A stretch of DNA of 64,000 nucleotides from Pseudonocardiaceae bacterium (GTDB lineage Bacteria > Actinomycetota > Actinomycetes > Mycobacteriales > Pseudonocardiaceae), in assembly GCA_050700115.1 (NCBI GenBank), contig JBOHGG010000015.1, positions 33,725 to 97,724 on the forward strand, read 5' to 3'. The notes under the pieces are model-generated. The model worked only from the letters and a program-made list of their open reading frames with translations. It ran no database searches and had not been told where the DNA came from. This document shows, piece after piece, positions 9,410 to 63,676 of this stretch. Within the stretch, counting starts at the first letter, position 1; each line of letters opens with the position of its first letter. The position numbers and the translations under genes were made by a program.

Positions 9410-9468
9410 CTTGTATTAACGGAATCCGCCGTTCGGGCGAACCTCTTACGATGAGCTACCTCCTCGTA

Positions 9469-10392: not shown

Positions 10393-10461
10393 CCGCTCTC
10401 CCCCTTCTCTGCTGACACCTGTCGTTGGGTTCACTGACGTTACGCTCCCTGTCGGTTATAC

Positions 10462-10478
10462 ACTAGCATGATGCTAGT
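10462..10478. promoter_or_regulatory. 17-bp perfect palindrome ACTAGCAT-G-ATGCTAGT upstream of the XRE gene
   Basis: Read directly. Lies 28-86 nt upstream of the candidate XRE starts, in an AT-richer spacer. Confidence 0.5.
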
Positions 10479-11172: not shown

Positions 11173-11201
11173 CAACACCGTCCCACTGTCCACCCCAGCA
11201 C

Positions 11202-11456
11202 TCAGTCGTCGTCCGAGGGGTCCTCTGCGGGCGGCGGTGGGAAATACCAGTCCTGCTCGGTTAGCGAGCAGGCGCAGCGCGGGCATTTGCCCCGCTGGCG
11301 GCGGGCGGTGTGAACTGCCGACCACTCCTCGTTGAGCCTGCGGCGCTCCTCGGCCTGCCGGCGAAGCTTGGGCTCTAAAGCCTGGGTGGTCCAGGTCGCT
11401 CCGAGCAGTAGCCCGAGGCAGACCAGCAGGACGGCGGCCAATACCTGGATGGTCAC
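11202..11456 (-). CDS. Small membrane-anchored hypothetical protein
   Basis: 84 aa. N-terminal TM helix IQVLAAVLLVCLGLLLG, a charged coil, then CPRCAC. GTG start. Confidence 0.5.
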   Translation of the reverse strand: MTIQVLAAVLLVCLGLLLGATWTTQALEPKLRRQAEERRRLNEEWSAVHTARRQRGKCPRCACSLTEQDWYFPPPPAEDPSDDD

Positions 11457-11742
11457 CGCGCTCTGCGGTGTGCTCCGCCACGACGTCTCGCTCCCAGGCT
11501 GCGGCCTACTGGCCGGGCTCCGGGGAGGCGTGTCGCGCTCCGGTGAGATGTCGACATGATGGCCTGCCCCTTCTCATCGGTGATGCGAGCTGGGGGCGCT
11601 ATGAGCTGCCGGGTAAGCCGAGACATGCATGTACCTCCCGACAGATATACGTACGTGTTTCTAAATACGTAGGTATAATTACTAAAAATACCAGTATGAA
11701 CACGTAAGATCAAGCTGTACTACGAGCTTGCACTTACGTAAC

Positions 11743-12762
11743 ATGGAGTACGCCCACCGAGCGGCGACCGCGAGGAGCAACCCTGTGGCCAGGACCCAGC
11801 TGACACATCGCGAGGATGAGGTGCTTCATCTTGCGGTCACCGGGCTCAGCAACGACGAGATCGCCGCTCGCCTTGCCATCTCGCGCCGGACAGTGGAGGC
11901 GCACATGCGCATGCTGTTCCGCAAGATCGGGGTGACCAGACGGGCTCAGCTGGTGGCGCTGTACCAGGGGCGCGACCCGAACGGCGCGGGGCCGTCCGAG
12001 TCTGAACCGGTCGAGGGTCCAGTAGCTCCGCTCTTCCAGCAGCGTCGTGATCTGGTGGACTGCGAGCGACAGTTGCAGGCCTACGCCGCCGGCATTCGCG
12101 GGCTGGTAGACCGGCAGTTCCCGCTGTTCGAGGAACGCGTTGAGATCACTGTCATAGTCGGTGCGCAGGACGAGCAGGACGTCGTCGTCGAGCGGCGCTG
12201 GACCAGGCCGAGGCCCTACCTCGTCTATCGAATACTGGGACCGATCGTGCCCTGGCCCGACGGACCGTTCGAACTGGACGATCTCGCCCTGGTCTGCCAT
12301 GTGAACGGCCAGGACACTCACGTCGACGTCCACCCGGTGCGGGATGTGGACGGTCGGCCACTATTGATGATCCTGTTCCAGCCGGGGCTGCAAGTCGATA
12401 CCGAGTGGGTGATCCGCTACCGCTCGCCTCAGTTGTGGAACCCGCTGCGCAGCTCGGGCCAGGACACCCTGTCCTGGGCTACCGCTACGCTCGATGAACG
12501 GCATTCGCCGACCACCAACAAGCTCACCCTCAAGGTCGTCTTTCCGGCCTCCTGGGCAGGAGAGCGGCTTACCGAGCAGAGCAATCTCGGCGCGATCCAT
12601 GCTGAGCGTCTACCCACCGGTCAGACCCAGCTGACCTGGCACCACGACACTCCGGACGCGAGGACATACCGCTGGGTGCTGCGAGGTCACGCGGCTCCTG
12701 AGCGTGAGCGGTCTTCGGACGGTAAGGAGCCAACGGGGGTACCGGGCGACGCGGTGCCATAA
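11743..12762 (+). CDS. LuxR-family regulator (N-terminal HTH, unknown C-terminal domain)
   Basis: REDEVLHLAVTGLSNDEIAARLAISRRTVEAHMRMLFRKIGV. AT-rich upstream region with a TATAAT at 11674. Confidence 0.75.
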   Translation: MEYAHRAATARSNPVARTQLTHREDEVLHLAVTGLSNDEIAARLAISRRTVEAHMRMLFRKIGVTRRAQLVALYQGRDPNGAGPSESEPVEGPVAPLFQQRRDLVDCERQLQAYAAGIRGLVDRQFPLFEERVEITVIVGAQDEQDVVVERRWTRPRPYLVYRILGPIVPWPDGPFELDDLALVCHVNGQDTHVDVHPVRDVDGRPLLMILFQPGLQVDTEWVIRYRSPQLWNPLRSSGQDTLSWATATLDERHSPTTNKLTLKVVFPASWAGERLTEQSNLGAIHAERLPTGQTQLTWHHDTPDARTYRWVLRGHAAPERERSSDGKEPTGVPGDAVP

Positions 12763-15700: not shown

Positions 15701-15910
15701 GACTTCGCCGCGCTGCGCCCGTTCGGCCAGCTCTATGAGGTACCCACCCGACTGGCGGGCAACCCCGAAGCCGACTGGGGCGCCCTACACCTGACCACCA
15801 CCCGAGACACCTATCACCAGACCCGGATCACTCTTTGGCACGTTCTGGATGCAGACTGGGGTAAATCGGGCACCGTTGACAGCAGTCTGCATCCAGAACG
15901 CGAAAAATAG
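12704..15910 (+). CDS. Emb-family arabinosyltransferase (GT-C), canonical type
   Basis: QTTVTWPAPGQ..PYRPAELTATVPC, LTDDDGF (DDG catalytic motif), PSKWSHHFGA, GPNAWW. The start is uncertain because the ORF 5' end overlaps the LuxR gene. The last ~23 codons lie in a hairpin repeat. Confidence 0.85.
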   Translation: MSGLRTVRSQRGYRATRCHNLRQPLPGQSRSTQSSSTYASSPRRAPPLSAASPATRRPAGTTLALLVGLAGVLIALALPFVPVLADQTTVTWPAPGQPATSSTALFAPYRPAELTATVPCSAIRAAASRGLAATVLATGSDGDGLVLTTGAGAARLLLNGRLVSTTPVAGTARDCATRVAAGPAATVITIGTPGDVRTINLAGELVPKVFAFSTELDPGQAAGMTVTARTASPFATSPSGIKTLLIAAQLLAALVALRLLARRTADDRGRPDDGPARTPSRRRWGTVWVDLGVLGVLAGWAIIGPLTDDDGFATTIARNAARTGNVGNYYRWWNASETPFALTHQLLAPLTEVSLAPLWLRLPSTVLAVATWFVVSRGVLGAALPAVASTVWIRLLAAVCLLAAWLPFNLGVRPEPYVALGVTAVLALLWRARGLAALGWAALVAGLTVTVSPSGLLVAAPILVFTPRIVAILGASARGWAEVATRVTLLCCIGAVGLTVIFADQTWYGLVTATRWHTDFGPSLAWYSEPERYHYLLGNDQDGSAAKRVPVLLTLALLPVVGLVLARRAETGVAGHSAARLAGVVATALALLWLMPSKWSHHFGALAGLFASFLVVAVVLLLRCAHETDRVTRGIGLAGGALVAAAAGLAFTGPNAWWQPAVYDVPWAAGPVRPIGLPLDSPLLWVGTLAAGYGVLAVLTPRRGTARAGPALVAAPAVLTVAAAGTALAVLLGAFLAAPVRQPAGSLALVNLHRLTGGPYCGLADDIQVLPDGDVLVPADSSGSLDGFTTLAGFDPDSPPPHPPGTGMSAQLWGSRAGGPLSTGTMTSPWFTLGAAGGVAVSVSGRTDGGNELVLEFGRAADAGVTTLGFRSPVDRVRPDQDDLDGPLDYRPWRSIGLDAQQIPPAADRVRIRAVDATSDPDGWLAVTGLRRRGLVGLNEFLAGRGPVLVSWPQAFLFPCVRDIAGVADGLATAPRAVIEAPRRHGRLSAITTDQSQGGDFAALRPFGQLYEVPTRLAGNPEADWGALHLTTTRDTYHQTRITLWHVLDADWGKSGTVDSSLHPEREK
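15841..15900. repeat. Perfect 18-bp inverted repeat with a 24-nt loop between convergent emb and helD
   Basis: CGTTCTGGATGCAGACTG (15841-15858) and CAGTCTGCATCCAGAACG (15883-15900), read directly. Confidence 0.9.
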
Positions 15911-15915
15911 CGAAG

Positions 15916-18264
15916 TTAGGGCTGGAGGGTGGCGAGGACTTCGGGGAGGTCGCCGGGGTGGACGACGCAGAGGCGGCTGGTGGTCCGGGTGAGGGCGACG
16001 TAGAGGTCGTTGAGGCCGCGCGGTGACTCGGCCACGATCGCCGCCGGGTCGACCAGCACCACCGCGTCGAACTCCAGGCCCTTGGCCTGGGTGACGGTCA
16101 GCACGGTCACCGGCGCGTCGAGGTCGTCGCCGCTCGCGATGGGGACGATCTTGCGAAGCTCGTCCACGCTGGCGGCGGGCCCCATCACGGCGACCCGGCC
16201 GTCGCCGACCGCCGCGGCCTCCTCGACGACCACCGCGGGCAGCCCGTCCGGGAGATCGGCGATCCGGACGGCGCGGGGCGCCACGCCCGTACTGCGCACC
16301 GACTTCGGTGGGATGATGTCGACGTCGAGGGCGGCGAGCACCTCGTCGGCCAGCTCCGCGATCTCAGCCGGGTTCCGGTAGTTGATCGTCAGCTGCTCCA
16401 GCCGCCACCGCTGCGCCACGTAGGGCCCGAGCACGTCTTGCCAGGAGACCGCACCGGCCCGGTCCCCGGTCTGCGCCAGGTCGCCGACCACCGTCATCGA
16501 GCGGCTGGGGCAGCGTCGCATCAGCACTCGCCACGCCATCGGGGACAGCTCCTGTGCCTCGTCGATGATGACGTGACCGTAGGTCCAGGTCCGGTCGGCT
16601 GCGGCACGCTCGGCGGTGCTGCCGTAACGGCGCTGCTGCTGACGGTCGGCCAGCCGGCTGGCGTCGATCAGGTCGGTGGCGCGCAGCAGCTCGGGGTCCA
16701 GGTCCTCGTCCAGGTCCAGGATGTCCAGCACGCCCTGTGCGTATTGCAGCTCCGCGCGCAGCGCCGAGGCCTCCCGGGCGGCCTCGGCGCTGCCGTCGGA
16801 GCCGAGCAGCTCAGCGGCCTCGTCCAGGAGCGGCACATCAGCGGGGGTCCAGGTTTGTCCGGGCTCGGTGCCAGGGCCGGTGGCAGCTCGAGCCAGCAGG
16901 TCGCGCTCCTCGGGGCGCAGCACCCGGTGGGTAGCGGTGGCCAGCCGCTCCGGGTCGGCATAGAGGTCGGTGAGCAACTGCTCCGGCGACAGTGTGGGCC
17001 ACAGCTGGTCCAGCGCGGCGGTCAGCTCGGGACTGGTTCGCAGCTCGGTGCGGATGTCTGCCAGGTCGCCTCGATTCAGGACGCCCCCACCCAATCCCTG
17101 ACCGCTCAGGCCACCGGCGACCTGCTCGGCCAGTGCCGTCACCACCTCGCGGTGGAAGATCTGCTTGGCCTCATTGTGCGGGCGGCGGGACCGCCGCGCC
17201 CGGGTGCGGGCCGGCAGGCACACCGTCTCGTCCAGCCGGACGTGTTGGGCCTCGACGTTGAGCTCGATGGGTGCCGGGGGCAGCTGCTGGCGGTCCCGGA
17301 CCGCTGCGGCCACCACCTTCGTCATCTCCGCGCGACCCTTGACCGCTGCGGTCTCGGCGGGCTCGACGCCGCGGGCGTGCAGCCCCGGGTGCAGCTGGGC
17401 GACCGTGGACAGCAGCACGCTGGTCTCCCCCAGCGAGGGCAGCACTTGCCCGATGTAGCTCAGGAACGTCGAGTTGGGCCCGACGACCAGCACACCCCGC
17501 TTGGCCAGCTGCTGGCGGTGCGTGTAAAGCAGGTAGGCCGCGCGATGCAGCGCGACCGCGGTCTTGCCGGTGCCTGGCCCGCCCTGCACGACCAGCACCC
17601 CCTGGGGCTTGGCGCGGATGATCCGGTCCTGCTCGGCCTGGATGGTCGCGACGATGTCGGACATCCGGCCGGTCCGGCTCGCCGCCAGCGCGGCCATCAG
17701 CGCCGCCTCGCTGGTCAGGCTGGTGCGGGTCGGGTCCTGCTGGGCACTGTCGAGGTCGAGCACCTCGTCGTCGACGGCGAGCACGGTTCGGCTGCGGGTG
17801 CGGATGTGCCGGCGGAGGCGAACGCCCTCGGGGCAGGCGGCGGTCGCGGTGTAGAACGGGCGTGCCGCAGGCGCCCGCCAGTCGATGAGCAGCGGCTCGT
17901 AGTCGTGATCCTCGTCGAGCAGTCCGAGCCGCCCGATGTAGCGCCGCTCCTCGCCGTCACCTTCCGGGTTGCCTGGCCCGTCGTCTTCCCCGTCGCCACT
18001 GCCGTTGAGGTCGAGCCGTCCGAAGCACAGGCCCTGCTCCACGCCGTCCAGGGTGGCGAGCTGGTCGGCGTACATCGCGGCTGCGGCGTCCCGCTCGCTG
18101 AGCGCCTGGGGTGTCCCGCTGGTGGCGCCTCGGAGGACCTCGCCGAGCCGCTGCGTCGTGTAGCGCCGGCGCTCGTCGAGATGTCGGTAGAGCAGGGTGA
18201 GGTAGTCCTGCTCCGCCGCCACGGCGTTATTGCCGCCGGACGGCGGTACTGGGGGAACCGACAC
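15916..18264 (-). CDS. helD: HelD-like UvrD/Rep superfamily-1 helicase (RNA-polymerase-associated type)
   Basis: AEQDYLTLLYRHLDERR N-terminal coil. Walker A VVQGGPGTGKTAVALHRAAYLLY. HVIIDEAQE. C-terminal QAKGLEFD. GTG at 18264 or 18306. Confidence 0.8.
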   Translation of the reverse strand: MSVPPVPPSGGNNAVAAEQDYLTLLYRHLDERRRYTTQRLGEVLRGATSGTPQALSERDAAAAMYADQLATLDGVEQGLCFGRLDLNGSGDGEDDGPGNPEGDGEERRYIGRLGLLDEDHDYEPLLIDWRAPAARPFYTATAACPEGVRLRRHIRTRSRTVLAVDDEVLDLDSAQQDPTRTSLTSEAALMAALAASRTGRMSDIVATIQAEQDRIIRAKPQGVLVVQGGPGTGKTAVALHRAAYLLYTHRQQLAKRGVLVVGPNSTFLSYIGQVLPSLGETSVLLSTVAQLHPGLHARGVEPAETAAVKGRAEMTKVVAAAVRDRQQLPPAPIELNVEAQHVRLDETVCLPARTRARRSRRPHNEAKQIFHREVVTALAEQVAGGLSGQGLGGGVLNRGDLADIRTELRTSPELTAALDQLWPTLSPEQLLTDLYADPERLATATHRVLRPEERDLLARAATGPGTEPGQTWTPADVPLLDEAAELLGSDGSAEAAREASALRAELQYAQGVLDILDLDEDLDPELLRATDLIDASRLADRQQQRRYGSTAERAAADRTWTYGHVIIDEAQELSPMAWRVLMRRCPSRSMTVVGDLAQTGDRAGAVSWQDVLGPYVAQRWRLEQLTINYRNPAEIAELADEVLAALDVDIIPPKSVRSTGVAPRAVRIADLPDGLPAVVVEEAAAVGDGRVAVMGPAASVDELRKIVPIASGDDLDAPVTVLTVTQAKGLEFDAVVLVDPAAIVAESPRGLNDLYVALTRTTSRLCVVHPGDLPEVLATLQP

Positions 18265-18432
18265 GCGATGCTTCCACCTTCTGCGACGGGATGGCCAACG
18301 TGGCACTCAAACCGGTGGGCGGCTGCCGACATTCCAAGGTAGCAAGATGTGCACCCCCCAGGCCTCCCCAGAATCCTAGCCCGCCCAGGTGCGGCCAATC
18401 CGTGCGTAACCGTTGCGCACGAGCCCTAGCGC

Positions 18433-18669
18433 TCAGCCGTGGCTGCTGTCAGCACTGGTGCCGGTGAAGCTGAAGCTGTAGCTGGAGTCGGACCCGCCGT
18501 AGCCGAACCATCCGAGGAAGTTGAACTTGGATACACCCTGGCCGTCGGCGCCGTGCGTACCCGGGTCGCCGTTCGCGCCGGTGGCGCTCAGCAGCGACAG
18601 GACGGTGCGGGCCGGCAGCAGCTCCACGTATTGCTCGCCGAGCTCGGCGAAGCTCATCGCGTCAGACAT
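18433..18669 (-). CDS. Small leader-like peptide (78 aa), function unknown
   Basis: Good SD (gggggattcgATG). No signal peptide. N-terminal FAELGEQYVELLPARTVLSLL, then a Gly/Ser/aromatic-rich tail FNFLGWFGYGGSDSSYSFSFTG. Confidence 0.55.
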   Translation of the reverse strand: MSDAMSFAELGEQYVELLPARTVLSLLSATGANGDPGTHGADGQGVSKFNFLGWFGYGGSDSSYSFSFTGTSADSSHG

Positions 18670-18872
18670 CGAATCCCCCTAGGACAGGCGGTCCCGGTCG
18701 CCCGGGCACGGAAGACGCCTCACCGGCGGCAGAGCCGGTTCGGCATCACCCACCGTGCCTACGGGAGGGGTCCTGTTGCAATCCGTAATCCCACGTAACT
18801 CTTAAGTGGCCTACGTACACGAACCCCCCGAGCCTGCACAGCGACAAGCATCCAGGTGGCCGCTCGCGAGGG

Positions 18873-21800
18873 TCAGCCGATGTAGGGGCGGCCGGTGTAG
18901 GACTCGCCGATGAGGGTGGGTAGGCGGGTCCAGCTGGGGCGCCGAACCTGGCCGACGCGCAGGTCGACCAGACCGACGGGGTGGGTGTAGACGACCTCCT
19001 CGACGTGGCCCCAGCCCAGCGTGGGCACGCCCGGCGGCATGAGCTGTGACGGCAGCTCGATGAACGTCGCGGTGCGGTCGACCTGTACCAGGGTGCCCCC
19101 GTTGCCGTCGAAGGTCGAGTTGTCGGCGACTGAGCTCTCCAGCCCGTCGGCGGCCCGCAGCCGCACCTGGGGGGCCTGTACCAGGCCGTTTCGCACGGTG
19201 ATCTGATCCTGGCAGGGCCACAGCCCGGCGGATACCTGGTCGGCGAACACCGGCCGGTCGGCGATGACATCGGTGACCGGCCGCGGCAGCGCCAGCCGTG
19301 GTTGCGCGACAGCCAGCCAGCTACCCGGACCGGGGACGCGATCCTGCGCTATCACCCGCACCGCGCTGGGCGCGTGCAGGCCGGCGTCGGCCAGCGCGAC
19401 GGTGACCTCGGTCCAGCCGGCTGTCTTCCCGATCGGGTCCAGTGGCACCGTGCGCACCCGGTCCGGTGCGGCTGGGTTCCCGGCTCCCACCTGCACCTCG
19501 AGCCGCTGGTCCTTGGTGAGCGTACCCAGCAGCCCCACCACCACCCGGCCGTCGGGGACCGGGCCGGGCAGCGGGTACCAGGGAGTCTGGACGGTCCCGG
19601 TCCCGGTGCCGCCGGACACGTCGTCGTGCCACACCGTGCTGTTCGATGGACTGTTCATCGGCGGCTGTAGTGAATCCGCCAGCGTTGAGTCCGGCAGCGG
19701 CGCCTCGCGCATGTCCCCAGTGAGCCCGGTGGTCCCGGTGGCCGGTCCGAGGCCAGGCTCGGCGCCGGTGAACACCGTCACCGACGTCGCCAGCCCGCAG
19801 GGGTCGCCGGCGAGCGCGCGCAGGTTCATCAGCGCCACCGAACTGCCGGGGTGCTGACGCAGCGGCGCGATCGTGAACACAGCGAGCATCAACGCCACCC
19901 CGAGGCCGGTCGCGGTGACCAGCACGGCCCGATCCGGGCCCGGCCAACCCCGGCGCCGCGCCCACCACCAGCCCGCACCGGCGACCGCTAGCCACAGCAG
20001 CGGGTTGCGCAACGACAGCGGTCCGACCGACGGGGCGAGCAGGCTCTGTAGGTAGGGGGTACCGAGGAGGATGTGGTTCCCGAAGGGCTGGCCCCAGTCA
20101 GAGTAGGGCCGCCACAGATTGGGGCCGGCGAAACTGACCGACGCGGCGGCCACCAGCCCCGCGGTGCCGATGGCCATCGCTGCGGTACCGGCCCGCCGCG
20201 GGAGCGGGGAGCGGATCACCGCGGCGGCGAGCAGCACCGTGGCGGGTGCGGCGATGGCACCGAAGTGGTTCACCCACTTCGTCGGCGTCAGCGCCATCGC
20301 CACCAGGCCGATCGCGGTGATCGCCGCCATCTCGCCGAGCAGCCGGCCGGTGCGTCCCCCGGTGCCGCCCCGCCGCCCGGCCCCGATGGCCACGGCCAGC
20401 AACACGGCCAGGGTGAGCAGCACTGGCAGCCGCTCGCCCCAGGCCCCCCGATCGTCGGCGACGAGCAGGTTCGCGTAGTGCAGGTACTCCTCGTACCAGG
20501 CGTGCTGGCGGTAGTACCAGCGGTGTACCGCGACCGATTCCAGCACGTCGCCGAGGGTGGCGTCGGCGAACCCGACCGGAACCACGACCGAGGCGGCCGC
20601 ACCGGCCAGCAGCACCGCTGCCACCCGGCCAGCCAGATCGGCGGCCCGCCACCACTGCCACAACCACGGCAGGCACAACACCAGCGGCGCGCTCGCGACC
20701 AGGCCGGTGGGGGAGACCGTGACGGTGAGCGCGGCGACCGCAGTGGCCGCCGCGAGCACCCCGACCGAGCGGCGCCGCCGGGCCAACTCGGCCAGCACCA
20801 GCACCGCCGCCGCGCCCAGCGCGATCAGCGGTTCGGGCCGCAAGGTGATCCCGTAGGCAAGCCACCAGAGCAGGTGCGCGGCCGCCACCGCCCACGGGAC
20901 CAGCGGTCGCTGCGCTGCCCGGTCGAGCACGGTCGCGACCAGCACCCGCAGCAGCGCGTAGGTCGCCAGCCCGTAGCCCAGCGGCAGCAGCCGCATCCAG
21001 CCCAGGCTCCAGTTGCCTGCGACAGCGCCCCAGGCCTGCATCACGTACTGGCTGGTGGAGAACGGGTTCTCGGTGACGTTGAACTGGTAGATAACGTTGC
21101 CGATATAGCCCGAGTCCATCGCGTTGCGGGCCATCAGCAGGTACCACGAGTCGTCGATGTTGACCGGGCCCAGCACCACCCAGATCAGCGAGACCCCGAT
21201 CACCACGGCATCAGCCCACGACGGTCGTGGACGGACCAGGCCTGGCCCATCGCCGCGCCACCATCGCCAGGCCAGCACGAGCAGTACCGCGAGCGCGAGA
21301 CCATGCGCGACCAGCAACGCGGTCTTGAGCAGTGTGGGGCTGGACTGGTATCGCGCGTCGGTGTGCAGCGTCAGGGCCAACCCGCTAGTTGGCCCCACGG
21401 CATCGGTCTGCAGCTGCGCGACCTGGGGCACCAGCAGGTCAGGCCGGGTGCCGATGTCGGTGCCGTCGCGGGACACCCGAATCCCGCCGGCACCGGCGAG
21501 GACCTGGTAGGAGCAGTCCCCGGCCGGCAGTGCCTCGCGGGTGAGCTCGGCACCGGAGGCGGTGACCGTCACCGTGCCCTGGGCTGCGGCTACTACCAGG
21601 CCTGCACCCGGGGCGGTGCCCACGTCGGCGGGCAGCGTGCGCAGCGCCTCGCCGCCACCCGGGCGGGCGTCCAGCTCCTGCAGCGTCGCGCATCCGACGG
21701 TGGCCGTGAGCTGCAGCGGGCGGTAGGGCGACAGCGGCAGCACGGTCGAGGTGGGCTGTTGCCCAGCGCGGGGCCAGCTCACCACCGGATCGTCGGCGAT

Positions 21801-27086: not shown

Positions 27087-28517
27087 CTATCGGTCTATTT
27101 CGACGTTTTCGAGGATGCCGAGTGCGTCGGGAACCAGGACGGCCACGGAGTAATAGGCGCTGACGAGGTAGGAGATGATGGCCTTGTCGTTGATCCCCAT
27201 GAAGCGCGCGTTGCACCCGGGCTGGACCTCATCGGGGATGCCGGTCTGATGCAGGCCGATCACGCCTTCGTCTTCCACGCCAGTACGGAGCGCGAGAATG
27301 GAGCTGGTGCGAGTCTTGGTGATGGGGATCTTGTTGCAGGGCAGAATTGGTACGCCGCGCCAGGACATCACCATATGGCCGTCGATGTCGACGTTCTGTG
27401 GATAAATTCCTCGGCGGTTGCATTCTCGGCCGAACGCGGCGATGGTGCGTGGATCGGCCAGGAAGAACCTCGTCTTTCTCCTTCGGGTGAGCAGCTCGTC
27501 GAGGTCGTCGGGGGTGGGGGGCCCGGCCCGGGTGGTGATGCGCTGTTTGACGTCGGCGTTGTGCAGGAGCCCGAACTCGCGGTTGTTCATCATCTCGTGC
27601 TCTTGCCGTTCCCGCAGCGCCTCAATGGTCAGCCGCAGCTGCTGCTCGACCTGGTTCATCGGATTGTTGTACAGATCCGCCACCCGGGTGCTCACTCGCA
27701 ACACGGTCTGCGCCACGCTCAGCTCATACTCCCGGGGTGCGATCTCGTAATCGACGAAAGTCGCCGCCAGTTCGGGCTCCCCCACATGGCCCGAGGTCAC
27801 CTCGATGGCGGCCTCGCTGTGTTTGTTCTGTGGCTTTCTGGCGTCGGCCCGGAACCGTTCCAGGTGAATCCGCAACGTCTCGGACTGGCCGAGTGCCTCC
27901 TCGAATGCCTGCTGGGGTAGCGTCAGTACCGTGCAGGCGGTCACCGCCCGGACGCTGTAGCCCCAGGTGTCCGGGGACCCGGTGCCCAGTGAGTCCGCTA
28001 ACTCCCGATCACCGAAATAGTCCCCGTCGACCAGCAAATCCAGCACTGCCGGTTCGCCGAACTCCCCAGCACCGATCTTGTTGACCTTGCCATGGGCGAT
28101 GAGGAACAGCTGATCAGCCGGCTGGCCCTCTTCCACAAGCGCGTCACCCGCCGCGAACTCCCGCTGCGCGAACCGGCCCGCCAGCGCACCCAGCAACTCG
28201 GCGTCATCTAAACCCCGCAGCATCGGCAACTCACCCAGCCCGCCGGGAATGACCCGCACCTCAGCCCCCACCGTGGTGAACGTCACCCGCCGGTCGCCCA
28301 CCAGATAAGTCAACCGGCGGTTTACCCGGTACGTCCCGCCCGAAACCTCCACCCACGGCAACGCTCGCAACAGCCACCGCGACGTGATCCCCTGCATCTG
28401 CGGCACGGACTTGGTCGTCTTCGCCAATTTGCGGGCCGCGGCGGTGCTGAGGCTTAATTGAGGCGGGCTCAACTGTGACTGCTCGGCAGCATCGACGTTC
28501 GGATCCGTCATGGTCAC
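27087..28517 (-). CDS. cNMP-binding EshA-like protein (Family 2B encapsulin shell candidate), copy 1
   Basis: [37 protein letters not shown]-type cNMP domain [19 protein letters not shown]-terminal [23 protein letters not shown]. Same architecture as the cnb/EshA gene of Streptomyces 2-MIB operons. Confidence 0.7.
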
Positions 28518-33128: not shown

Positions 33129-34553
33129 TTACCGCCCGATTTCGATGTTTTCGAGGACGCCGAGTGCGTCGGGGACCATGACGGCTGCGGAGTAGTAGGC
33201 GCTGACCAGGTAGGAAGTGATCGCCTTTTCGTCGATACCCATGAAGCGGACATTCAGCCCGGGTTGAACTTCATCGGGGAGGCCGGTCTGGTGCAGGCCG
33301 ATCACGCCTTGCTTCTCCAAACCGGTACGGAGCAGCAAAATTGAACTGGTGCGGGTCTTGCTGATGGGGATCTTGCTGCAGGGCAGGACGGGTATGCCGC
33401 GCCAGGCGGGCATCATGTGGCCGTGGATGTCGACGCTCTGCGGGTAGATGCCCCGGCTGTTACATTCCCGACCGAACGCGGCGATGGTGCGGGGATGGGC
33501 CAGGAAAACGTCCGGATCTTTCCACACGGTGGCCAGAAGTTCGTCGAGGTCATCAGGGGTGGGGGGTCCAGTGCGGGTGCTGATGCGCTGGGAGAAGTCG
33601 GCGTTGTGCAGCAGCCCGAAGTCACGGTTGTTCATCAGTTCGTTTTCTTGGCGTTCCCGCAGCGCCTCGATGGTCAGCCGAAGCTGCTCTTCGACCTGGT
33701 TCATCGGATTGTTGTACAGATCGGCCACCCGCGTGTGCACCCGCAACACGGTCTGCGCCACGCTGAGCTCATACTCCCGGGGCTTGATCTCGTAGTCGAC
33801 GTAGGTCCCTGCCACGTCCGACTCCTGCGCCAGGCCCGCGCTCAGGTCGATGTCGGCCTCGCCGTTTTCGGTCTGCGACTGTTTGAGCAAGGCCTGGAAC
33901 CGCTCAACCTGGGCCCGCAACTCCGGGTGCTGGCCAACGACTTCCTCGAAGGCCTGCTGGGACAACGCGAGCACCGTACACGGAGTTGCCGCTCGCACGC
34001 TGTAGGCCCACGTGTCGTTGGACTCCACCAACTCCCACACACCGAAATAATCACCATCGGACAAGGTACCCAATACCGTCGGATCACCGAACTCTCCAGG
34101 GCCGATCTTGTTGACCTTCCCATGGGCGATCAAAAACACCTGATCAGCCGGCTGACCTTCCTGCACGATCGTGTTGCCGGCCTCGAACTCCCGCTGCGTG
34201 AACCTGTCTGCCAACGCACCCAGTATCTGCATATCCTCAAGACCGCGCAGCACCGCCAATTCACGCAACTCCGCGGGAACGACCCGCACCTCGGCGCCCT
34301 CCGTGGTGAACGTGACCCGCCCGTCACCCACCGCATAAGTCAACCGGCGGTTCACCCGGAAAGCCCCGCCGGCGGCCTCCACCCACGGCAATACCCGCAA
34401 CAGCCACCGCGACGTGATTCCCTGCATCTGCGGCACGGACTTGGTCGTCGTCGCCAAATTACGGGCCGCCGCCGTAGCCAAACTCAGCTGCTGCCGCTCA
34501 CTATCAACATCCACACCCGGCTGTCCCGGCTCAGTCACCGCGTACACCACCAA
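33129..34553 (-). CDS. cNMP-binding EshA-like protein (Family 2B encapsulin shell candidate), copy 2
   Basis: Colinear with 27087..28517, about three quarters identical by eye. Same [14 protein letters not shown] and [12 protein letters not shown] motifs. The start codon (TTG/GTG cluster at 34538-34553) is uncertain. Confidence 0.7.
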
Positions 34554-57278: not shown

Positions 57279-57366
57279 GGAAGCGTGGCAGAGCGGTCTA
57301 ATGCACTCGCCTTGAAAGCGAGAGGTGGGCAACCACCCGGGGGTTCGAATCCCTCCGCTTCCGCCA
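57279..57366 (+). tRNA. tRNA-Ser (anticodon UGA), CCA encoded
   Basis: Acceptor GGAAGCG/CGCTTCC, anticodon arm CTCGC-CTTGAAA-GCGAG, long variable arm GGTGGGCAACCACC, T-arm GGGGG-TTCGAAT-CCCTC. Confidence 0.9.
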
Positions 57367-57549
57367 TCGCTGACCAGGCACGATGGTGACCGGCATGGTC
57401 ACTCTCCTCGCGTGGACCAGTCTCGGGCTAGTCCGCTCCTCGTTCCAAAAGTCCATGCCCGGCCGATAGGCTGACCACCTCAGCGCAGGGCAGCGGTCAC
57501 TCTGACAGACGTCGTGGTGGGCTGCCACAGGGAATGTGACACTGGCCGC

Positions 57550-58443
57550 GTGTCTTGGGTGGGAATTGGCGAGCGTATCGCGGTGTATCGGCGTCGACGT
57601 GGGCTGAGTCAGGCAGCACTGGCCGGTCTGGTCGGAGTCGTGGCTGTCTCAGGTCGAGCGCGGGATCCGCTCGGTGGATCGCCTGTCCGTGCTGCTTGAC
57701 ATGGCGCGCATCCTGCACGTCGATGTGGAGTCGCTGATCGGCCGGCCTTGGCAGCTGGCCCCGAATGGTGGCGGGGTTGCCTAGGGCCTGGACACGGTCC
57801 GGCAGGTCATGACCCGGTATGACCACCTGCTCGGCGCGGACGCTCCTATCATGCCGCCATTGCCCGAATTGCGCGGCCAGGTCGCGACGCTGCACCAGGA
57901 TTACCAGGCCGCTCGGTATGAGACGGTCGTCCGTCAGCTCCCGGATCTCATCACACTGATCGACGGGGTACCACGGATCGCCGCCGACGAGCGGGGCGAG
58001 ATGCTGTGCACCTACGTATTTGCCTACGTTGGTGTCGCGAAGCTGCTGACCAAGTTCGGCGTGACCGATCTTGCCGTGCTCGCGGCGGACCGGGCAGCGA
58101 CGATCGCGGTTGAGGCCGACTCGCTCGGCGCCCGGGGGATGGCTGCATACCAGGTGGTATGCGCTCAGCTGCGGGCAGACCACACCGACGAGGCGGAGCG
58201 GCTCGCCGTGCGTATGGCCGAGAAGATCCACGAATCGGCCACGACCGAGACCCCGAAGCTGGCTTCGGTTGCCGGTGCGTTGTGGTTGATCGCGGCGGTG
58301 GCCGCCGCGCGGAACGCTGCGCCCCGGAGGCGATGCGGTACAACGCGATGGTCTGTGACCTGTTGCGCGAGATGCTCGCCCGCGCACGCCGCCCGAACAG
58401 CGTCCTGCACGACCTCTCGGTACGCGCGGGCGTGCTGGACTAG
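57550..58443 (+). pseudogene. XRE-family regulator pseudogene
   Basis: The HTH reading IGERIAVYRRRRGLSQAALAGLVG jumps frame near 57635 to SWLSQVERGIRSVDRLSVLLDMARIL. In-frame TAG at 57782-57784. A second frameshift near 58310-58325 precedes the end at 58443. Confidence 0.75.
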
Positions 58444-58450
58444 GCCGTCG

Positions 58451-58868
58451 GTGCCCGCGCATCTCGCACTCGTCGCCTGCGGCGCGCCGCTCGCTGCCCG
58501 CGCACACGATGTCGCAGCACAGGCGGTCGAAGCCGGTTGGATCGTGCGCGTGGTTGCAACACCTTCGGCAATGAACTGGGTAGACGCTGACCGAGTCGAG
58601 AAGGTCACCGGGTTTACTGTGCTCGTCGAGCAGCGCCAGCCCGGACAAGCTAAGCGGTTTCCTCCACCGGCTCAGGTCATCGTGTGTCCCGCCACGTTCA
58701 ATACGGTGAACAAGCTCGCCGTCGGGATCATGGACAACTACGCCGCGGGCCTGCTGTGCGAAGCCCTCGCTTCACAAACCCCGATCACCATCGCACCGAT
58801 GGTCAACAATCGCCTGTGGTCGCACCCCGTCTGGCAACGCAATCTAGACGTGCTCACCGCAGCGGGGG
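58451..58868 (+). pseudogene. Flavoprotein (PF02441-like) gene truncated by an IS insertion
   Basis: HLALVACGAPLA..VIVCPATFNTVNKLAVGIMDNYAAG..PMVNNRLWSHP. The reading frame runs into the IS3 terminal repeat at 58869. Confidence 0.6.
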
Positions 58869-60222
58869 TGAGCCACCCCAGGTTTTGTACCGCCCTTAGA
58901 TTGTGTGTGATGCCGCCGGGGTGGCGGCGTCGGTTGGAGCGTAGTAGGCGGCTTCGGCTTCGGCCGGTGGAATGCGGCCGAGGCGATGCATGAGCCGCCG
59001 GGTGTTGTACCAGTGGACCCAGGCTGAGGTGATCTCCTCCAGGTTGGCCAGGGTGCGGATCGGGCCGCGTCGGAACGGGGAGCCGGCGCGGACGCATTCG
59101 GTCTTGTACAGGCCGATCGTGGTCTCGGCGAGGGCGTTGTCGTAGGCGTCCCCCACGCTGCCGATTGACGGTGTCAGGCCCTCCAGGAACAAGGTTTGTC
59201 CGAAGTGGACGGCGGTGTACTGGGAGCCTGCGTCGCTATGGTGAATCGCCCCCTCACCCAGCGGGCGGCCCTGCCGGCGCCGGTAGGCGACGGCCTGCCG
59301 GATCGCCGCCTCGACCAACCCGGTGTGCTTGCTCGTCGAGCATTCCCAGCCGGGGATCAGCCCGGCGTAGGCGACGAACGCGGTGTAGCCGAACCCGCCG
59401 CCGGCCAGTGGCACGTAGGTGAAGTCGGCCACGTGCAGCAGACCGGGCGCCGCGGCATGGAACTGCCGGTTGACCAGATCCGGCGCCCGGGTCGCAGCGG
59501 GGTCGGCCACCGTGGTGCGCACCTTCCGAGCCCGAGTGGCGCCGCGCCACCCGTTCGCGCGCATCACCCCGCTCCACCGTGCACCGGGCCACCTCGATGC
59601 CCTCCCGGTTTAGGTACGCCCACATCTTCGTCGCCCCGTACAGGCACTCCGGCGGCCGCCGCCCCTGCTCATCCGGCTCGTAGTAGCCGGCCAGCACCTC
59701 GGCGATCGCGGCGTCCCACAGGGCCCGCTTCGACGGCGGCCGGGCCAGGTGCGCCCGGTAGGTGCGCGGGGCGATCTGCACACCCAGCACACCCAGTGCC
59801 CGGCAGATCGGTGCGACCCCGTGCTCCTGCCGTCGCCAGGCAATGAACTCGCAGATCAGCGGCATTGCGGGTCGCACTCCCGCACGAAGAAAGCCGTGGC
59901 CTCTTTCAAGATCTCGATCGTGCGCTCCAGCTCGCCGTTCTTCCGCTTCAGCTCCCGGATCTGACGAGCCGACGCCGTCGTCACGCCCGCCGCCTCCCCA
60001 GCTTGCACTTCGGCCTGACGAAGCCACTTGCGCAGCGTCTCCGCGCTCATCCCCAACCGGCCGGACACGGCCTTGATCGCCGCCCACTCGGTTTGCGTAG
60101 TCACCCACGTGATCACGGACCAGCCGGACAGCCTTCGCCCGGGTCTCCCTGCCGTAGCTCCTGCCTGACATCGCGCCATCCTTCCCAAGATCGGAAAGGG
60201 GTACGAAACCCGGGGCGGTTCA
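58869..60222 (-). mobile_element. IS3-family insertion sequence, degenerate (1354 bp)
   Basis: Imperfect terminal inverted repeats TGAGCCACCCCAGGTTTTGTACCGCC (58869) and TGAACCGCCCCGGGTTTCGTACCCC (complement, ending at 60222). OrfA (WAAIKAVSGRLGMSAETLRKW..IRELKRKNGELERTIEILK) and OrfB (DDE domain HSDAGSQYT..YDNALAE). Extra frameshifts near 60100 and 59570, besides the expected -1 OrfA/OrfB shift. Confidence 0.85.
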
Positions 60223-60617
60223 GACCAACTCCCTGCCGGGTCCATCGTCACCGTGAGCCAGCCGGAGTGGCCCTCGCGGCGGACATCCCCTGTCTTGTAC
60301 GGGCACATCCAACCCGCTGGACTGCCAGCAGTCGGCGTCGATTGCTTTGGTTGCCAGGTCGGCTCTCCGCTCATCACATCGTGGGTATGTCTGTACTTCG
60401 CGTGTTCCACAGGCCCATAGTGACTATCCACATCTTTGACTAGGGAATACGTTGCCGCACGCGAGAACTGTCCACAGCCGGTGACCCGAATTTCCGGGTT
60501 TATCCACAGTCAGCGACTTGTTGTGCCCGTAGCGCTCCCCAACCGGGCTTGGCTAGGGTGCACTTTCATTCACACCGTCCGTCGTATGGGTACTTTACCA
60601 TCTTGTGAGGCTTCCTC

Positions 60618-60977
60618 GTGGGAAACGTGCTGTCGCCTGATTTGACCGTCCGTGACTTGAACGACTGGGCGAAGATGCAGTTGGGACGCTTGCGTCTGGC
60701 GCTGGGAAGCGATACCTGTAGCGAGCCTGCCTTTGTGCTTGCGCAGGCAGCGAAACTCGCTGAGGAAGTCGGTGAGCTGCAGGCCGAGGTTCTTGGTCAG
60801 GCCGGCTACCAGCGAGCTACTAAGAATCAGTGCTTTACTGCTGAGTCCATGTCCCGCGAACTCGCCGACGTGATGATTTGCGTCGCTATCCTGGCCAGCT
60901 CGCATGATATTGATCTCGGTAAGGCTCTTGCGTCAAAGATCGAAGCGATAAACGCACGTCACGAGAGCAACGCCTAG
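60618..60977 (+). CDS. MazG-like all-alpha nucleoside triphosphate pyrophosphohydrolase
   Basis: 119 aa. AAKLAEEVGELQAEV and SRELADVMICVAILA metal-binding helices. GTG start. Low G+C. Confidence 0.6.
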   Translation: MGNVLSPDLTVRDLNDWAKMQLGRLRLALGSDTCSEPAFVLAQAAKLAEEVGELQAEVLGQAGYQRATKNQCFTAESMSRELADVMICVAILASSHDIDLGKALASKIEAINARHESNA

Positions 60978-61747
60978 GCTAGCAGCCTCTCGAAGTGCTC
61001 GCCTCTGACGTACTCCACTATGTCCCACATCTCCTGATGCACGAGCTGGTTTACGTTCCGCGCACCAGCGCTGACTAGCCCCATCCCAAGGCAGGCCACT
61101 AGAGCGGTTGACAAGCTGTGTCGTACGTTCAACGTCAAGAGTTGCTCGCGGATTGACTCGGTGCCGTGTTCAAGGAAATCCCGCTGTAATTTGGTCATGG
61201 AGCCACGGGCCAACTCTGGCTGCCTCACGTCAAGCTTCACATCACCGCAGACGTCCACCAGCCTACGGCTAGCTCCGACTGGTAGATGGTCGACGTCGTA
61301 GCGAGTATCGAAAACACGACCGTCTTCGCTTCGCCTGGTGCGCCATAGCTCATATGCGCCCTCAATGCCGACCAGTGTGCTTGTGGATGCGTTCTTGACG
61401 ATCGATAGATCTGATGATAACTGATGTCCAGTCAGCACCGAGTCACTGGCTAGCCATGCTTGCAGATCGCTATCAAGTGATGCTATCAGAGCTGCTTCGT
61501 CACCTTCTTGTGTCACGTACACTGACTTGAAGCCAAAGGACACCGGGTACGTGCTCAAATCGTCGCCATCATGCGGCCAGCGCAACAATACCAAGGAATA
61601 GCAGAACGGCCGGGAACCGTTCTTGATCTGATAATTCTTCGTCCACTCCACGTCGAGCGCCGCCACAAACCGCTCGGAAGCTCCGAAGAAGCGATCCGAC
61701 CGGTCAAAGAGATTTTCAGGCCACTGTAAATTACTTGTGACGCGCAT
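60974..61747 (-). CDS. DEDD-type 3'-5' exonuclease-like protein (RNase D/WRN-like)
   Basis: ExoI-like ALDVEWT and ExoII-like LTGHQLSSDLSIV. The third motif is unclear. Start overlaps the radical SAM stop. Low G+C. Confidence 0.45.
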   Translation of the reverse strand: MRVTSNLQWPENLFDRSDRFFGASERFVAALDVEWTKNYQIKNGSRPFCYSLVLLRWPHDGDDLSTYPVSFGFKSVYVTQEGDEAALIASLDSDLQAWLASDSVLTGHQLSSDLSIVKNASTSTLVGIEGAYELWRTRRSEDGRVFDTRYDVDHLPVGASRRLVDVCGDVKLDVRQPELARGSMTKLQRDFLEHGTESIREQLLTLNVRHSLSTALVACLGMGLVSAGARNVNQLVHQEMWDIVEYVRGEHFERLLA

Positions 61748-62777
61748 CGACGATTACTCCGCTTCCATTCTCGCTGACGGAGATGCTCTTGCCCAAGTAC
61801 TTGCGCAGATGATTGAGCTTGAACGGGTAGCGCTTCCATATCTCAGTAATCGACTCTTTCTGCAGGTCCCCCAGGTACGCCACCTTGTCCTCCGGTCCAC
61901 CTTGCTCACCCCGCTCGGCCACGCCGCCGTACACCGGCCACGACCAAGTAGAGCCGTCAGGATAGACCAGGATGGAGTAGCCCTCGGTCGCGGGCGTCCA
62001 GGTCGTCATGCGTAGACTAGGTGTCCAGCCGTGTTCGTGGGCAAGCTCTTTCATCCGTTCGAACAGCGCAGCCGACTCGTGAAGCGTCAGGAACTCCGAG
62101 TCTGCCAAGTGGAGTCCGTTGCCTTTTCGTATCGGATGAATGAGCTTAATTTTCCCGGCACCCAGCAAGTCGGCAATTTGGTAAGTAAATGGTAGCGCGT
62201 CAACCAAGCTGCGCAGCACTACCGCCGAGATCGACAGTGGTAATCCGGCCTCCTTGAACGCGATGATGCCACGCATCACCTTGTCGTAGTCACCGCGTAC
62301 ACGGTTGGTGGTGTTGCGCGGTCCTTCCAGGCCGACATTGATGAACGAAACCTTACCGACAAGCTTGGAAGCCATGAAGTGCCCACGGGTGGCGTTGGTT
62401 GGAACGGCCACGATGTGATCGTGGAAGATGTCGAAAATCTCCACGAAGTCACGGCGCAGGAGTGGTTCACCACCTGAAAGAAACACTCGGGGCACACCGG
62501 CCAGATTCCGCTGAATCGATGCGATCTGATCGAGCGTCGGGTCTTTCGTCTGCATCGTCTCGCTACAGAAGTCGCAGTCGAAGTTGCAACGCCGGGTCAC
62601 CTGGTAGATGACCGACAGCGGCCTGTCGATGATCTCGGTTGAGCGGGCAAGCTCAGCGTCGGTCATGGTGGTCTTGAAGTAGTGTCCTTGCGCCGAGAAC
62701 TCAATTCCGTTGGTGCCCGCGCTGACGCCTTGCTTGCCTGCGTGTTGGACGGTCGGAACTCCGAGATCAATGCTCAT
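61731..62777 (-). CDS. Radical SAM enzyme, viperin-like
   Basis: SVIYQVTRRCNFDCDFC (CxxxCxxC), FLSGGEPLL, no SPASM cysteines. By eye the block order resembles viperin. Low G+C. Confidence 0.6.
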   Translation of the reverse strand: MSIDLGVPTVQHAGKQGVSAGTNGIEFSAQGHYFKTTMTDAELARSTEIIDRPLSVIYQVTRRCNFDCDFCSETMQTKDPTLDQIASIQRNLAGVPRVFLSGGEPLLRRDFVEIFDIFHDHIVAVPTNATRGHFMASKLVGKVSFINVGLEGPRNTTNRVRGDYDKVMRGIIAFKEAGLPLSISAVVLRSLVDALPFTYQIADLLGAGKIKLIHPIRKGNGLHLADSEFLTLHESAALFERMKELAHEHGWTPSLRMTTWTPATEGYSILVYPDGSTWSWPVYGGVAERGEQGGPEDKVAYLGDLQKESITEIWKRYPFKLNHLRKYLGKSISVSENGSGVIVDARHK

Positions 62778-63399
62778 CGGTAGTACTCCTCTTCTCGATT
62801 AAATCAAGGTTCTTGATCTGTGTGACAACCCACCGCCCACGCTCGTCAATATCGAGCCCGCGCGGTATCTCGATAATCGGCTGGCCTAATCGCTTATACT
62901 CGGCGCGCACCAAGCCGTCAGCTTGCACCTGTAGATCGGCAACCCGAACTCGATACTTGTCGCCTCTCTGGTCAGTCGCATAGTGATCCTGACAGAAAAA
63001 CACTGCGTCGTATACCGCCCCCCATGCGCGACAGAAACCATCCATGGCATCCGCCATCGCTGCGTCCCAGGTACCAGGTTCGATGTGCAGTAACATCTTG
63101 CAATAGGCCAGCACATTCGTTGGAGTCTTGTCGCAAAGCACAACTTCATGAGAGCGGACGGCGCGTACACTGTTCGTGATGTGCGCCGCAAAGATATCGA
63201 GTTCCAGAGTCATGTCGAAGTCGGCCGCCTTATGAATTACCACATCGTCCACGAAAGGACTCGTGCGTGCTGGCTCTCCGAGCGTAGTGACATGCACACC
63301 CTGCCGTCGAAGCAATGCCGCGACGGCGTAGATGAGTGTGGTTTTTCCGCTGGCATGCGTGCCATCGAATGCAACCAGCTTGGCGCGTCGAAGAGCCAT
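62767..63399 (-). CDS. P-loop nucleotide kinase (thymidylate-kinase-like)
   Basis: ATG at 63399 after cgagga. Walker A FDGTHASGKTTL. VLCDKTPTNVLAY resembles the TMK DRY..S..AY block. Overlaps the radical SAM start. Confidence 0.6.
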   Translation of the reverse strand: MALRRAKLVAFDGTHASGKTTLIYAVAALLRRQGVHVTTLGEPARTSPFVDDVVIHKAADFDMTLELDIFAAHITNSVRAVRSHEVVLCDKTPTNVLAYCKMLLHIEPGTWDAAMADAMDGFCRAWGAVYDAVFFCQDHYATDQRGDKYRVRVADLQVQADGLVRAEYKRLGQPIIEIPRGLDIDERGRWVVTQIKNLDLIEKRSTTDEH

Positions 63400-63676
63400 A
63401 CAAGATCCTCGTTTCAATCAGACAATGTGCAGCAGTTCCCCGCCTGACGCTCGCTCAACGGTGATCCACGCGAGCAGATGCGCTGCGACGTCGGGGGTGC
63501 TCATTGCGCGGCCGCTAACAACGCGTCGGCCACCCGGATGGCTGGGGGACGGGTGAGCACCGTCGCGGCGCACCACGCTGCCGCCCACCAAATCTGTCTC
63601 CCGCCACAAGATGATCGTGCGGTTGCGGCCCCGGGATCGTAACCGGTGAGGACGAACCGGTGCGAGCGCTCTGCGG

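Follow-up and report, generated by a model that had tools for sequence, protein, structure and literature searches.

A mobile radical SAM operon with a predicted DnaQ-fold partner that probably makes or handles a modified nucleotide

Viperins are the precedent for cells that fight viruses with nucleotide analogs made by radical S-adenosylmethionine (SAM) enzymes, and work by Bernheim from 2021 is said to describe prokaryotic viperins with an adjacent nucleotide kinase. Phages also possess pre-replicative pathways of nucleotide modification, including those of T4-type phages and the MazZ/DatZ/PurZ pathway of Z-genome phages. In SPO1 and other hydroxymethyluracil (hmU)-type phages, such a pathway combines a deoxynucleoside triphosphatase (dNTPase), a modifying enzyme and a deoxynucleoside monophosphate (dNMP) kinase, and the phage thymidine hypermodification cluster comprises 5-HMUDK and aGPT-Pplase/AADT, usually together with a dUMP hydroxymethylase and a pyridoxal phosphate (PLP) enzyme (PMC8989533). 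Ophion, an experimentally validated system of Gammaproteobacteria, consists of the radical SAM protein OpnA, the PHP protein OpnB and the phosphoribosyltransferase (PRTase) OpnC (bioRxiv 10.1101/2025.09.30.679545). Herein, we analyzed a 2.8-kb cassette within a 64,000-nucleotide stretch of a Pseudonocardiaceae contig (the window), which encodes a radical SAM protein (rSAM), an exonuclease-like protein (exo), a nucleotide kinase resembling thymidylate kinase (TMK) and a MazG-type nucleoside triphosphate (NTP) pyrophosphohydrolase (Table 1). As judged from its sequence, the cassette appeared to be a variant of the radical-SAM nucleotide systems with partners not described for viperins in the searched literature, and its operon probably makes or handles a modified nucleotide.

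The preliminary description of this DNA did not recognize the four-gene combination as a described system, and the searches agreed: the gene set was absent from PADLOC-DB v2, in which only rSAM gave weak matches to the prokaryotic viperin (pVip) models and exo, the kinase and MazG gave none, and no description of it was found in the full-text literature searched, where Ophion was the nearest analog. The system resembles the viperins in its single-cluster rSAM without auxiliary cysteines, having a predicted fold akin to the partial barrel (TMt ~0.7) and similar surroundings of the CX3CX2C motif, in its linked nucleoside monophosphate (NMP) kinase of the TMK/CMPK superfamily, and in its patchy, mobile distribution. 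It differs from them in that rSAM fails the curated hidden Markov models (HMMs) and has its own C-terminal region, in that an obligate partner of predicted DnaQ fold (often an active and degenerate pair) and an NTP pyrophosphohydrolase accompany it, neither of which is among the viperin partners in the searched literature, and in that a temperate phage lineage carries the operon as a fixed component. With Ophion it shares a viperin-related yet distinct rSAM, a partner of phosphoesterase or exonuclease type, an enzyme of nucleotide metabolism and a proposed interference with nucleic acids, whereas the partners there are PHP and PRTase proteins and those predicted here are a DnaQ-like protein, a TMK-like kinase and a MazG or Nudix protein. 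The combination of a (deoxy)nucleoside triphosphate ((d)NTP) pyrophosphatase, a nucleotide-modifying enzyme and a dedicated NMP kinase on a phage also recalls the pre-replicative pathways; in contrast to these, however, the modifier is a radical SAM protein rather than a homolog of thymidylate synthase or PurA, no polymerase is linked, and most copies are chromosomal and lie outside prophages.

A scan with one genome per species yielded 80 loci (numbered with the prefix L), whose hosts were mostly Actinobacteria (Streptomyces, Micromonospora, Frankia, Actinomadura, Amycolatopsis, Kitasatospora and others), together with Dictyobacter, a Dormibacteraeota metagenome-assembled genome (MAG) and a Bdellovibrionales MAG. 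The rSAM/exo/kinase unit, whose conservation the preliminary description had proposed to check, recurred across these species-level loci: the exo family was present in 74 and the kinase in 67 (both by tblastn), an exo paralog in 73 and a Nudix gene in 55. The usual order was rSAM, a degenerate exo paralog, active exo, TMK-like kinase and Nudix, the constant core being rSAM with the DnaQ-fold partner directly downstream, and the frequent overlap of the rSAM and exo genes suggested that their products form a complex. In every locus where both exo copies were called (37/37), the degenerate copy preceded the active one; this first copy lacks D32, E34 and H210, and in 45-46 of 46 loci none of the 22 signature residues is lost from the second. 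The sole exo copy is of the active type in the window and in L091, L092 and L093, and the sole exo-like gene of the Frankia clade is catalytically degenerate by sequence, and this demonstrates that hydrolysis is not the whole role of the exo fold.

The hydrolase slot proved to be exchangeable. It is usually filled by Nudix, by MazG in the clade of the window, and in L091 by an HD/HD_assoc dGTPase-like protein, which there follows rSAM, active exo and a 125-aa open reading frame (ORF) in an operon without a kinase. MazG-like ORFs under the Pfam cut-off fill the slot in L059, L077 and L079, and MazG proteins passing the cut-off were found in L012, together with Nudix, and in L074, directly after rSAM. 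Since Nudix, MazG and HD proteins are not homologous, their exchange speaks for (d)NTP hydrolysis as a component of the function. The version in the window comprises the kinase, rSAM, one active exo gene and the convergent MazG gene. In L074 (8001-9299), which belongs to the Bdellovibrionales MAG (~40% G+C), an rSAM homolog of 53% identity is followed by MazG, and tblastn for exo and kinase homologs found none there; this locus may represent a still smaller form of the system.

The rSAM protein matched PF04055 with 64 bits (cut-off 29.5, E=2.5e-17), in accordance with membership in the radical SAM superfamily, and C64, C68, C71 and the SGGEP motif were invariant in 34 homologs. The 1145 homologs retrieved share a strongly conserved core and their own conserved C-terminal region of ~100 residues, and we regard rSAM as a large family of its own. 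The three cysteines of the motif are the only ones in the protein, which leaves none for a SPASM/twitch auxiliary cluster, as had been noted at the outset; a "cysteine-less SPASM remnant" at the C-terminus was also considered and discarded, the hhalign alignment with a SPASM protein covering the N-terminal core only. The best NCBIfam models (AhbC, archaeal MoaA, NirJ, MftC and PqqE) scored ~50 bits against cut-offs of 265-650, and a housekeeping role as MoaA, PqqE, NirJ, AhbC or MftC was rejected on account of these scores and the patchy, mobile distribution. A Foldseek search with the AlphaFold2 model of rSAM (predicted local distance difference test (pLDDT) 83) placed SkfB first, followed by mouse viperin, SuiB, the viperin-like enzyme of T. 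virens, anSME, MoaA, PqqE, AbmM and BlsE. Viperins have a partial (beta-alpha)6 barrel, which a conserved C-terminal extension closes, and conserved CTP-binding residues. The two viperins reached TMt values of 0.70-0.73, SkfB had the best E-value, and SuiB, anSME and MoaA scored equally well. The predicted fold is thus that of the broad MoaA/viperin/twitch neighborhood and is not uniquely viperin.

At the sequence level, exo stood by itself. It gave no match at E<=0.1 in Pfam, NCBIfam, PADLOC or PHROG, including the PF00929/PF01612-type families, a sequence search of the PDB gave no match and a profile search of it gave nothing relevant. An exhaustive profile search of 1.84 billion representative proteins returned 228 clusters, all of its own family, in which the longer matches carried no informative fusions (one carries DUF5999). 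A tie to an annotated family by sequence was accordingly dropped, as none emerged from any library searched. When the AlphaFold2 model (pLDDT 92.7) was compared with the PDB and viral structure libraries by Foldseek, the leading matches were all RNase T, TREX1/2, polymerase proofreading domains and DnaQ, which, weak as the matches were, points to a DnaQ/DEDD fold. The exonuclease assigned in the preliminary description hence stood as a predicted fold and fell as a member of a known HMM family.

DnaQ/DEDD exonucleases carry four acidic residues, in ExoI (DxE), ExoII (D) and ExoIII (H/Y-x(3-4)-D), and the conserved residues of exo agreed with this pattern in part. D32, E34, H108, D113, D147, D151, D165 and H210 are invariant; D32-x-E34 corresponds to the ExoI motif of the DnaQ/DEDDh exonucleases, H108-x4-D113 ("GHQxxSD") is ExoII-like, and H210 lies in the last long helix. 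In contrast to the canonical enzymes, however, the position five residues after H210 is occupied by Ala instead of the ExoIII Asp, so that H-x4-D becomes H-x4-A, no sequence profile links the families, further invariant motifs (DTRYD, SRRLVD and QPE) are present, and a degenerate paralog lacks both D-x-E and the His. The fourth acid may be D147, D151 or D165, all of them candidates by their invariance. RNase T and the TREX exonucleases are dimeric enzymes, and by analogy the pair of active and degenerate exo proteins would fit such an arrangement.

The kinase matched AAA_28 (41.5 bits, cut-off 27) and remained under the cut-offs of the thymidylate kinase models PF02223 (Thymidylate_kin; 19.1 bits, cut-off 27) and TIGR00041 (19.3 bits, cut-off 83). 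It also matched PHROG "thymidylate kinase" families (E=3e-10) and, weakly, TMKs in the PDB; we consider it TMK-like and not a TMK ortholog. The MazG protein reached 25.3 bits for PF03819 (cut-off 22), with EEVGELQ and ELADV as the metal-binding helices (EExxE...ExxD) of this all-alpha family, and matched PHROG MazG-like, its nearest PDB sequences being YpjD 2gta (E=6e-5) and 5ie9. Of the family models that the preliminary description had singled out, those for radical SAM (PF04055) and MazG were matched above their cut-offs, those for pVip were matched weakly and over a part of their length, that for thymidylate kinase was missed at its cut-off, and PF01612 gave no match. At dS values of 0.4-0.8 against three relatives, MazG had a dN/dS of 0.06-0.14, exo one of 0.08-0.09, rSAM one of 0.10-0.13 and the kinase one of 0.17-0.20. 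These values indicate purifying selection on all four genes, and thus all of them are considered to be functional and co-inherited. The early assignment of MazG to the module held in view of this co-inheritance, the selection and the exchange of its slot among Nudix, MazG and HD.

Evidence for mobility came from base composition and from comparison with relatives. The cassette has a G+C content of 56.4% (52-58% in 400-bp windows), which corrects the 48-50% first given from sampled lines, the flanks have ~69%, and every member of the window clade lies ~13 points under its own flanks (offset -0.13). In blastn against L002, L003 and L081, the shared DNA was essentially 60622-63421/63446, that is, the four genes including MazG; L002 and L003 additionally share short patches upstream of MazG, and L001 is collinear from 60226 to the end of the window. 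The block is flanked by heme-biosynthesis genes and a P-type ATPase in L081 and lies among glycosyltransferase genes in L094, which is on the same contig as L002. Because the 2.8-kb block is shared alone, with differing flanks where these are annotated and with the G+C deficit described, the cassette is judged to have been acquired horizontally, as the preliminary description had proposed. No PLSDB plasmid matched at 1e-40, and one GTDB locus of the family is a Lentzea plasmid.

The full operon is also carried by phages. In Gilgamesh, a Streptomyces phage of 129 kb that encodes an integrase, it corresponds to gp39-43, between the integrase/helix-turn-helix (HTH) region and the portal gene, and it was found in five IMG/VR contigs, three of them of 125-128 kb. 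Gilgamesh and ~10 related (pro)phages carry the operon, Gilgamesh-like phage genes neighbor ~10-13 loci, and the copy of Streptomyces sp. 769 abuts tail genes. Two Cys-rich proteins accompany these operons and could be accessory components: a protein of ~200 aa without a Pfam match, represented by Gilgamesh gp38 (L083, 8238-8846), has homologs in ~10 loci, 0.4-1.9 kb upstream of rSAM, and a gp44-like protein of ~185 aa lies just after Nudix in 10 loci.

Beyond the core, a neighbor survey, whose counts are lower bounds since the GC3-based gene caller under-calls genes, found no gene recurring in more than 15 of 86 loci. Recurrent neighbors included WhiJ-type regulator sets (HTH_31/DUF5753, DUF397 and HATPase_c_2). 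The 99 non-redundant neighbors pooled, counted without a control set, contained DrmA/B, Cas3, QatA, mad2, integrases and relaxases amid mostly ordinary genes, and the presence of defense genes among them is suggestive. Several single loci are described here for their surroundings. In L091 (operon 9001-12832), SLFN_AlbA_2, DUF4417 and a Gabija-like pair of UvrD and OLD-TOPRIM/AAA_21 proteins (14328-18984) lie ~2-5 kb away. In L092, the operon is flanked by transposases and adjoins ArdC, and next to its window-type cassette (14600-17437) are genes for Nuc_deoxyrib_tr, a thymidylate-synthase homolog (332 aa), a ThiD-like Phos_pyr_kin and an ADK-like kinase, a cluster that recalls hydroxymethyl-pyrimidine pathways of the bacimethrin/MilA-MilB type. 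In Frankia sp. R43 (L090, 1-21041), the operon sits inside a block of 20 kb whose genes concern nucleotides and sugar phosphates, namely two TMK-like genes, QueC, a nucleoside deoxyribosyltransferase, AP_endonuc_2, a ribulose-phosphate epimerase, two HAD, NTP_transf_5, AAA_33, two APH and a 2'-5' RNA ligase. Lanthipeptide genes occur near L093.

We consider that there is about an even chance that these genes form a mobile nucleotide-modifying operon engaged in phage-host or inter-element conflict, for which defense and a phage weapon both fit. Chemistry on a nucleotide or a nucleic-acid terminus is suggested because a single-cluster rSAM is combined with a 3'-end/NMP-binding fold, an NMP kinase and an NTP hydrolase, and a role in conflict because of the mobility and the phage carriage. 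Among the fold neighbors of rSAM, viperin, MoaA, AbmM and BlsE are nucleotide-using enzymes, which is in agreement with this proposal, as is the lack of an auxiliary cluster. In the proposed mechanism, rSAM would abstract a hydrogen atom either from a nucleotide or, on a nucleic acid bound by the DnaQ-fold partner, from the residue at the 3' end, and the modified nucleotide thus formed would probably poison replication or transcription, a dehydration of the viperin type being one possible chemistry. The kinase would convert the monophosphate of the substrate or product to the diphosphate, the pyrophosphohydrolase would clear the competing normal NTP or destroy surplus product, and the active exonuclease would supply NMPs or trim the modified residue off 3' ends. 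The minimal version in the window would have been gained recently by horizontal transfer. A more specific form of the proposal, which we offer only tentatively, is a nucleotide-poison system not described before, in which the rSAM family, complexed with its DnaQ-fold partner, would make a modified nucleotide or act on 3' ends directly, in which the active exonuclease and the swappable hydrolase would serve as immunity or off-switch, and which bacteria and one temperate phage lineage alike would deploy against competing phages.

Several observations weigh against the proposed conflict role and its mechanism. The fold matches of exo are weak (E 1e-4 to 1e-2, with best values of 8.8e-4 and 1.7e-4, and TM 0.3-0.54), and the PADLOC defense HMMs match neither exo nor the kinase. 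Many loci lie among ordinary variable-region genes, and the count of defense neighbors has no control set. The fixed place in a single phage lineage is just as compatible with a function that benefits the phage. The degenerate-only exo of Frankia means that exonuclease chemistry is not universally required, which weakens "terminator excision" as the universal role of the partner.

The most probable alternative, which we nevertheless consider unlikely, is a pool-level modification of nucleic acids by the logic of the hmU phages, in which the pyrophosphatase would yield (d)NMP, rSAM would modify it, the NMP kinase would re-phosphorylate it for the element's own DNA or RNA, and the exonuclease would recycle host nucleic acid. 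The gene logic does parallel the pathway of dNTPase, modifying enzyme and dNMP kinase (PMC8989533), the operon occupies a fixed position in the Gilgamesh-like temperate phages of 125-129 kb, and the PHROG labels of the kinase, MazG and Nudix are typical of phage nucleotide metabolism. However, in most loci the stretch within ~8 kb showed no phage structural gene of the recurrent kind (portal-MuF clusters appear in only 7 loci and integrase clusters likewise in 7, as called by an incomplete gene caller), and the copies in L081 and L094 are surrounded by hem and glycosyltransferase genes. The operon also comes without a polymerase, transferase or restriction partner, no thymidine-hypermodification domain was found in the cassette or the canonical operon, and the cassette contains no thymidylate-synthase-like, 5-HMUDK or aGPT-Pplase gene. 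In addition, the HD-type partner of L091 would yield a nucleoside instead of an NMP, and the kinase is missing there.

It is improbable, in our view, that the system repairs nucleic-acid ends, with rSAM acting on a damaged or blocked 3' terminus in analogy to spore photoproduct lyase (SPL), which acts on DNA, the DnaQ-fold proteins binding or trimming it, and MutT/MazG and the kinase sanitizing and recycling nucleotides. The obligate pairing of rSAM with a 3'-end-binding fold, including a non-catalytic paralog suited to binding, and the MutT-like nature of the Nudix partner would be accounted for, and the named host genera are often sporulating or filamentous actinomycetes, plus Dictyobacter, sporulation being a well-known trait of these genera. 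Such a role is nonetheless at odds with the patchy, mobile distribution and the carriage by phage, no SPL model was among the best 25 of 47 NCBIfam matches, and genes for a ligase, a polymerase or other repair proteins are not linked to the operon.

The preliminary description had called rSAM viperin-like, and a very divergent bona fide prokaryotic viperin, making 3'-deoxy-3',4'-didehydro (ddhNTP) terminators, would explain a part of the data, yet we regard it as quite improbable. The PADLOC pVip HMMs gave E=1e-10 and 6e-8, the cluster-cysteine stretch PLSVIYQVTRRCNFDCDFCSET aligned with the corresponding stretch of viperins and is locally viperin-like, the viperin structures reached the TMt values given above, and a kinase is linked, as in 12% of bacterial viperins (bioRxiv 10.1101/2023.09.13.557418). 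The pVip alignments, however, covered profile positions 2-116 of 257 only, PDB viperins aligned to residues 42-121 of rSAM only, and the curated models NF038283 (viperin_w_prok; 30.4 bits, cut-off 180) and TIGR04278 (27.4 bits, cut-off 450) were missed widely and outscored by the MoaA, AhbC and NirJ models. Membership in the viperin family was rejected on the basis of these cut-offs and this coverage, the likeness being confined to the N-terminal SAM core and accompanied by SkfB as best fold match, mixed fold neighbors and the C-terminal region peculiar to rSAM.

Least probable of all is a pathway for a nucleoside-type secondary metabolite (an antibiotic or antimetabolite) with the hydrolase and exonuclease as producer self-resistance, for which the gene block of Frankia sp. 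R43, the lanthipeptide genes near L093 and the structural relatives AbmM and BlsE, both nucleoside-antibiotic enzymes, could be cited, and against which stand the low recurrence of non-core neighbors (<=15/86 loci), the lack of a conserved transporter or tailoring set, the movement of the 2.8-kb cassette alone and the carriage by phage.

The features of the cassette are summarized in Table 1. The four ORFs at 60618-63399, three on the minus strand and one convergent on the plus strand, were verified with the coordinates and overlaps originally reported, as were the sharing of CTAG (60974-60977) by the convergent stop codons of exo and MazG and the presence of all the quoted motifs (GTHASGKTT, CDKTPTNVLAY, CNFDCDFC, SGGEPLL, DVEW, GHQLSSDL, EEVGELQ and ELADV). 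The kinase and rSAM genes overlap by 11 nt and the rSAM and exo genes by 17 nt, the latter overlap being retained in L081 and L094 and compatible with translational coupling. A plausible GGAG/GAGG ribosome-binding site (RBS) could be read ahead of every gene start, that of the kinase being a GAGGA motif 7-8 nt 5' of the ATG. A promoter and terminator scan of the cassette gave nothing beyond shuffled expectation, and no known RNA element was found in or near the operon. The region upstream of MazG, which probably includes its promoter or leader (60324-60617), gave blastn matches with L001 (60226-60588, 85%), L002 (60324-60620, 77%) and L003 (60468-60559, 79%).

Table 1. Positions of the cassette genes and their adjoining regions in the window
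Feature	Position	Strand	Remarks
TMK-like P-loop nucleotide kinase	62767..63399	-	210 aa, with the ATG start at 63399; leads the three-gene operon
Radical SAM enzyme (rSAM)	61731..62777	-	348 aa; CX3CX2C at C64/C68/C71, GGE motif
Exo-like protein of predicted DnaQ/DEDD fold, "active" type	60974..61747	-	257 aa; orphan by sequence
Single-domain MazG-type NTP pyrophosphohydrolase	60618..60977	+	119 aa; convergent with the operon
Kinase leader	63400..63446	-	Inside the shared block, holds the RBS; blastn homology ends at 63421 (L081, L003) and 63446 (L002)
MazG upstream region	60324..60617	+	Partly conserved in close relatives (blastn vs L001, L002, L003)

Further elements were observed around the cassette. 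An IS3-family element (58896-60250, minus strand), consisting of orfA with HTH_Tnp_1, orfB with an rve integrase core and the Rfam ALIL frameshift pseudoknot (59767-59895), lies ~400 bp from the MazG end, and a tRNA-Ser(TGA) gene (57279-57366, plus strand) lies 3 kb from the cassette. Beyond the tRNA gene, the region 57514-58993 (plus strand) contains an HTH fragment (57514-57699) followed by a 394-aa ORF with a Flavoprotein (PF02441) C-terminal half, and has the appearance of a disrupted HTH_31 regulator, perhaps a pseudogene, frameshifted or fused, at the boundary of an island. Two copies of RF02735 (Saccharopolyspora small RNA 350, ~500 nt), at 27976-28475 and 33994-34501 (plus strand, 6 kb apart, 82 and 104 bits), suggest a repeated element and a host genome of the Pseudonocardiaceae type. 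In the related loci L081 (7230-9117), L094 (5758-8191) and L003 (2590-4497), a conserved block lies ahead of the four-gene cassette, with a divergent HTH_31 protein (450-462 aa; 84-87% identity between loci), a small ORF of 61-96 aa and, as seen in L081 and L094, a GNAT acetyltransferase; a homolog of the HTH_31 regulator (~450 aa) of L002, L003 and L081 was sought in the window and none was found.

If the proposed function is true, the operon would add to the viperins a second, independent family that follows the same idea, with an obligate partner of the proofreading fold and a dedicated hydrolase in addition. The cassette is only 2.8 kb long and the isolated phage Gilgamesh holds the full version, which makes the system directly testable. 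It could bring to light new nucleotide chemistry, possibly with a new nucleoside scaffold of antiviral or antibiotic use, and could show how a producer shields its own polymerases from a chain terminator, and it could give a function to two sizeable families of "hypothetical" proteins in Actinobacteria and their phages.

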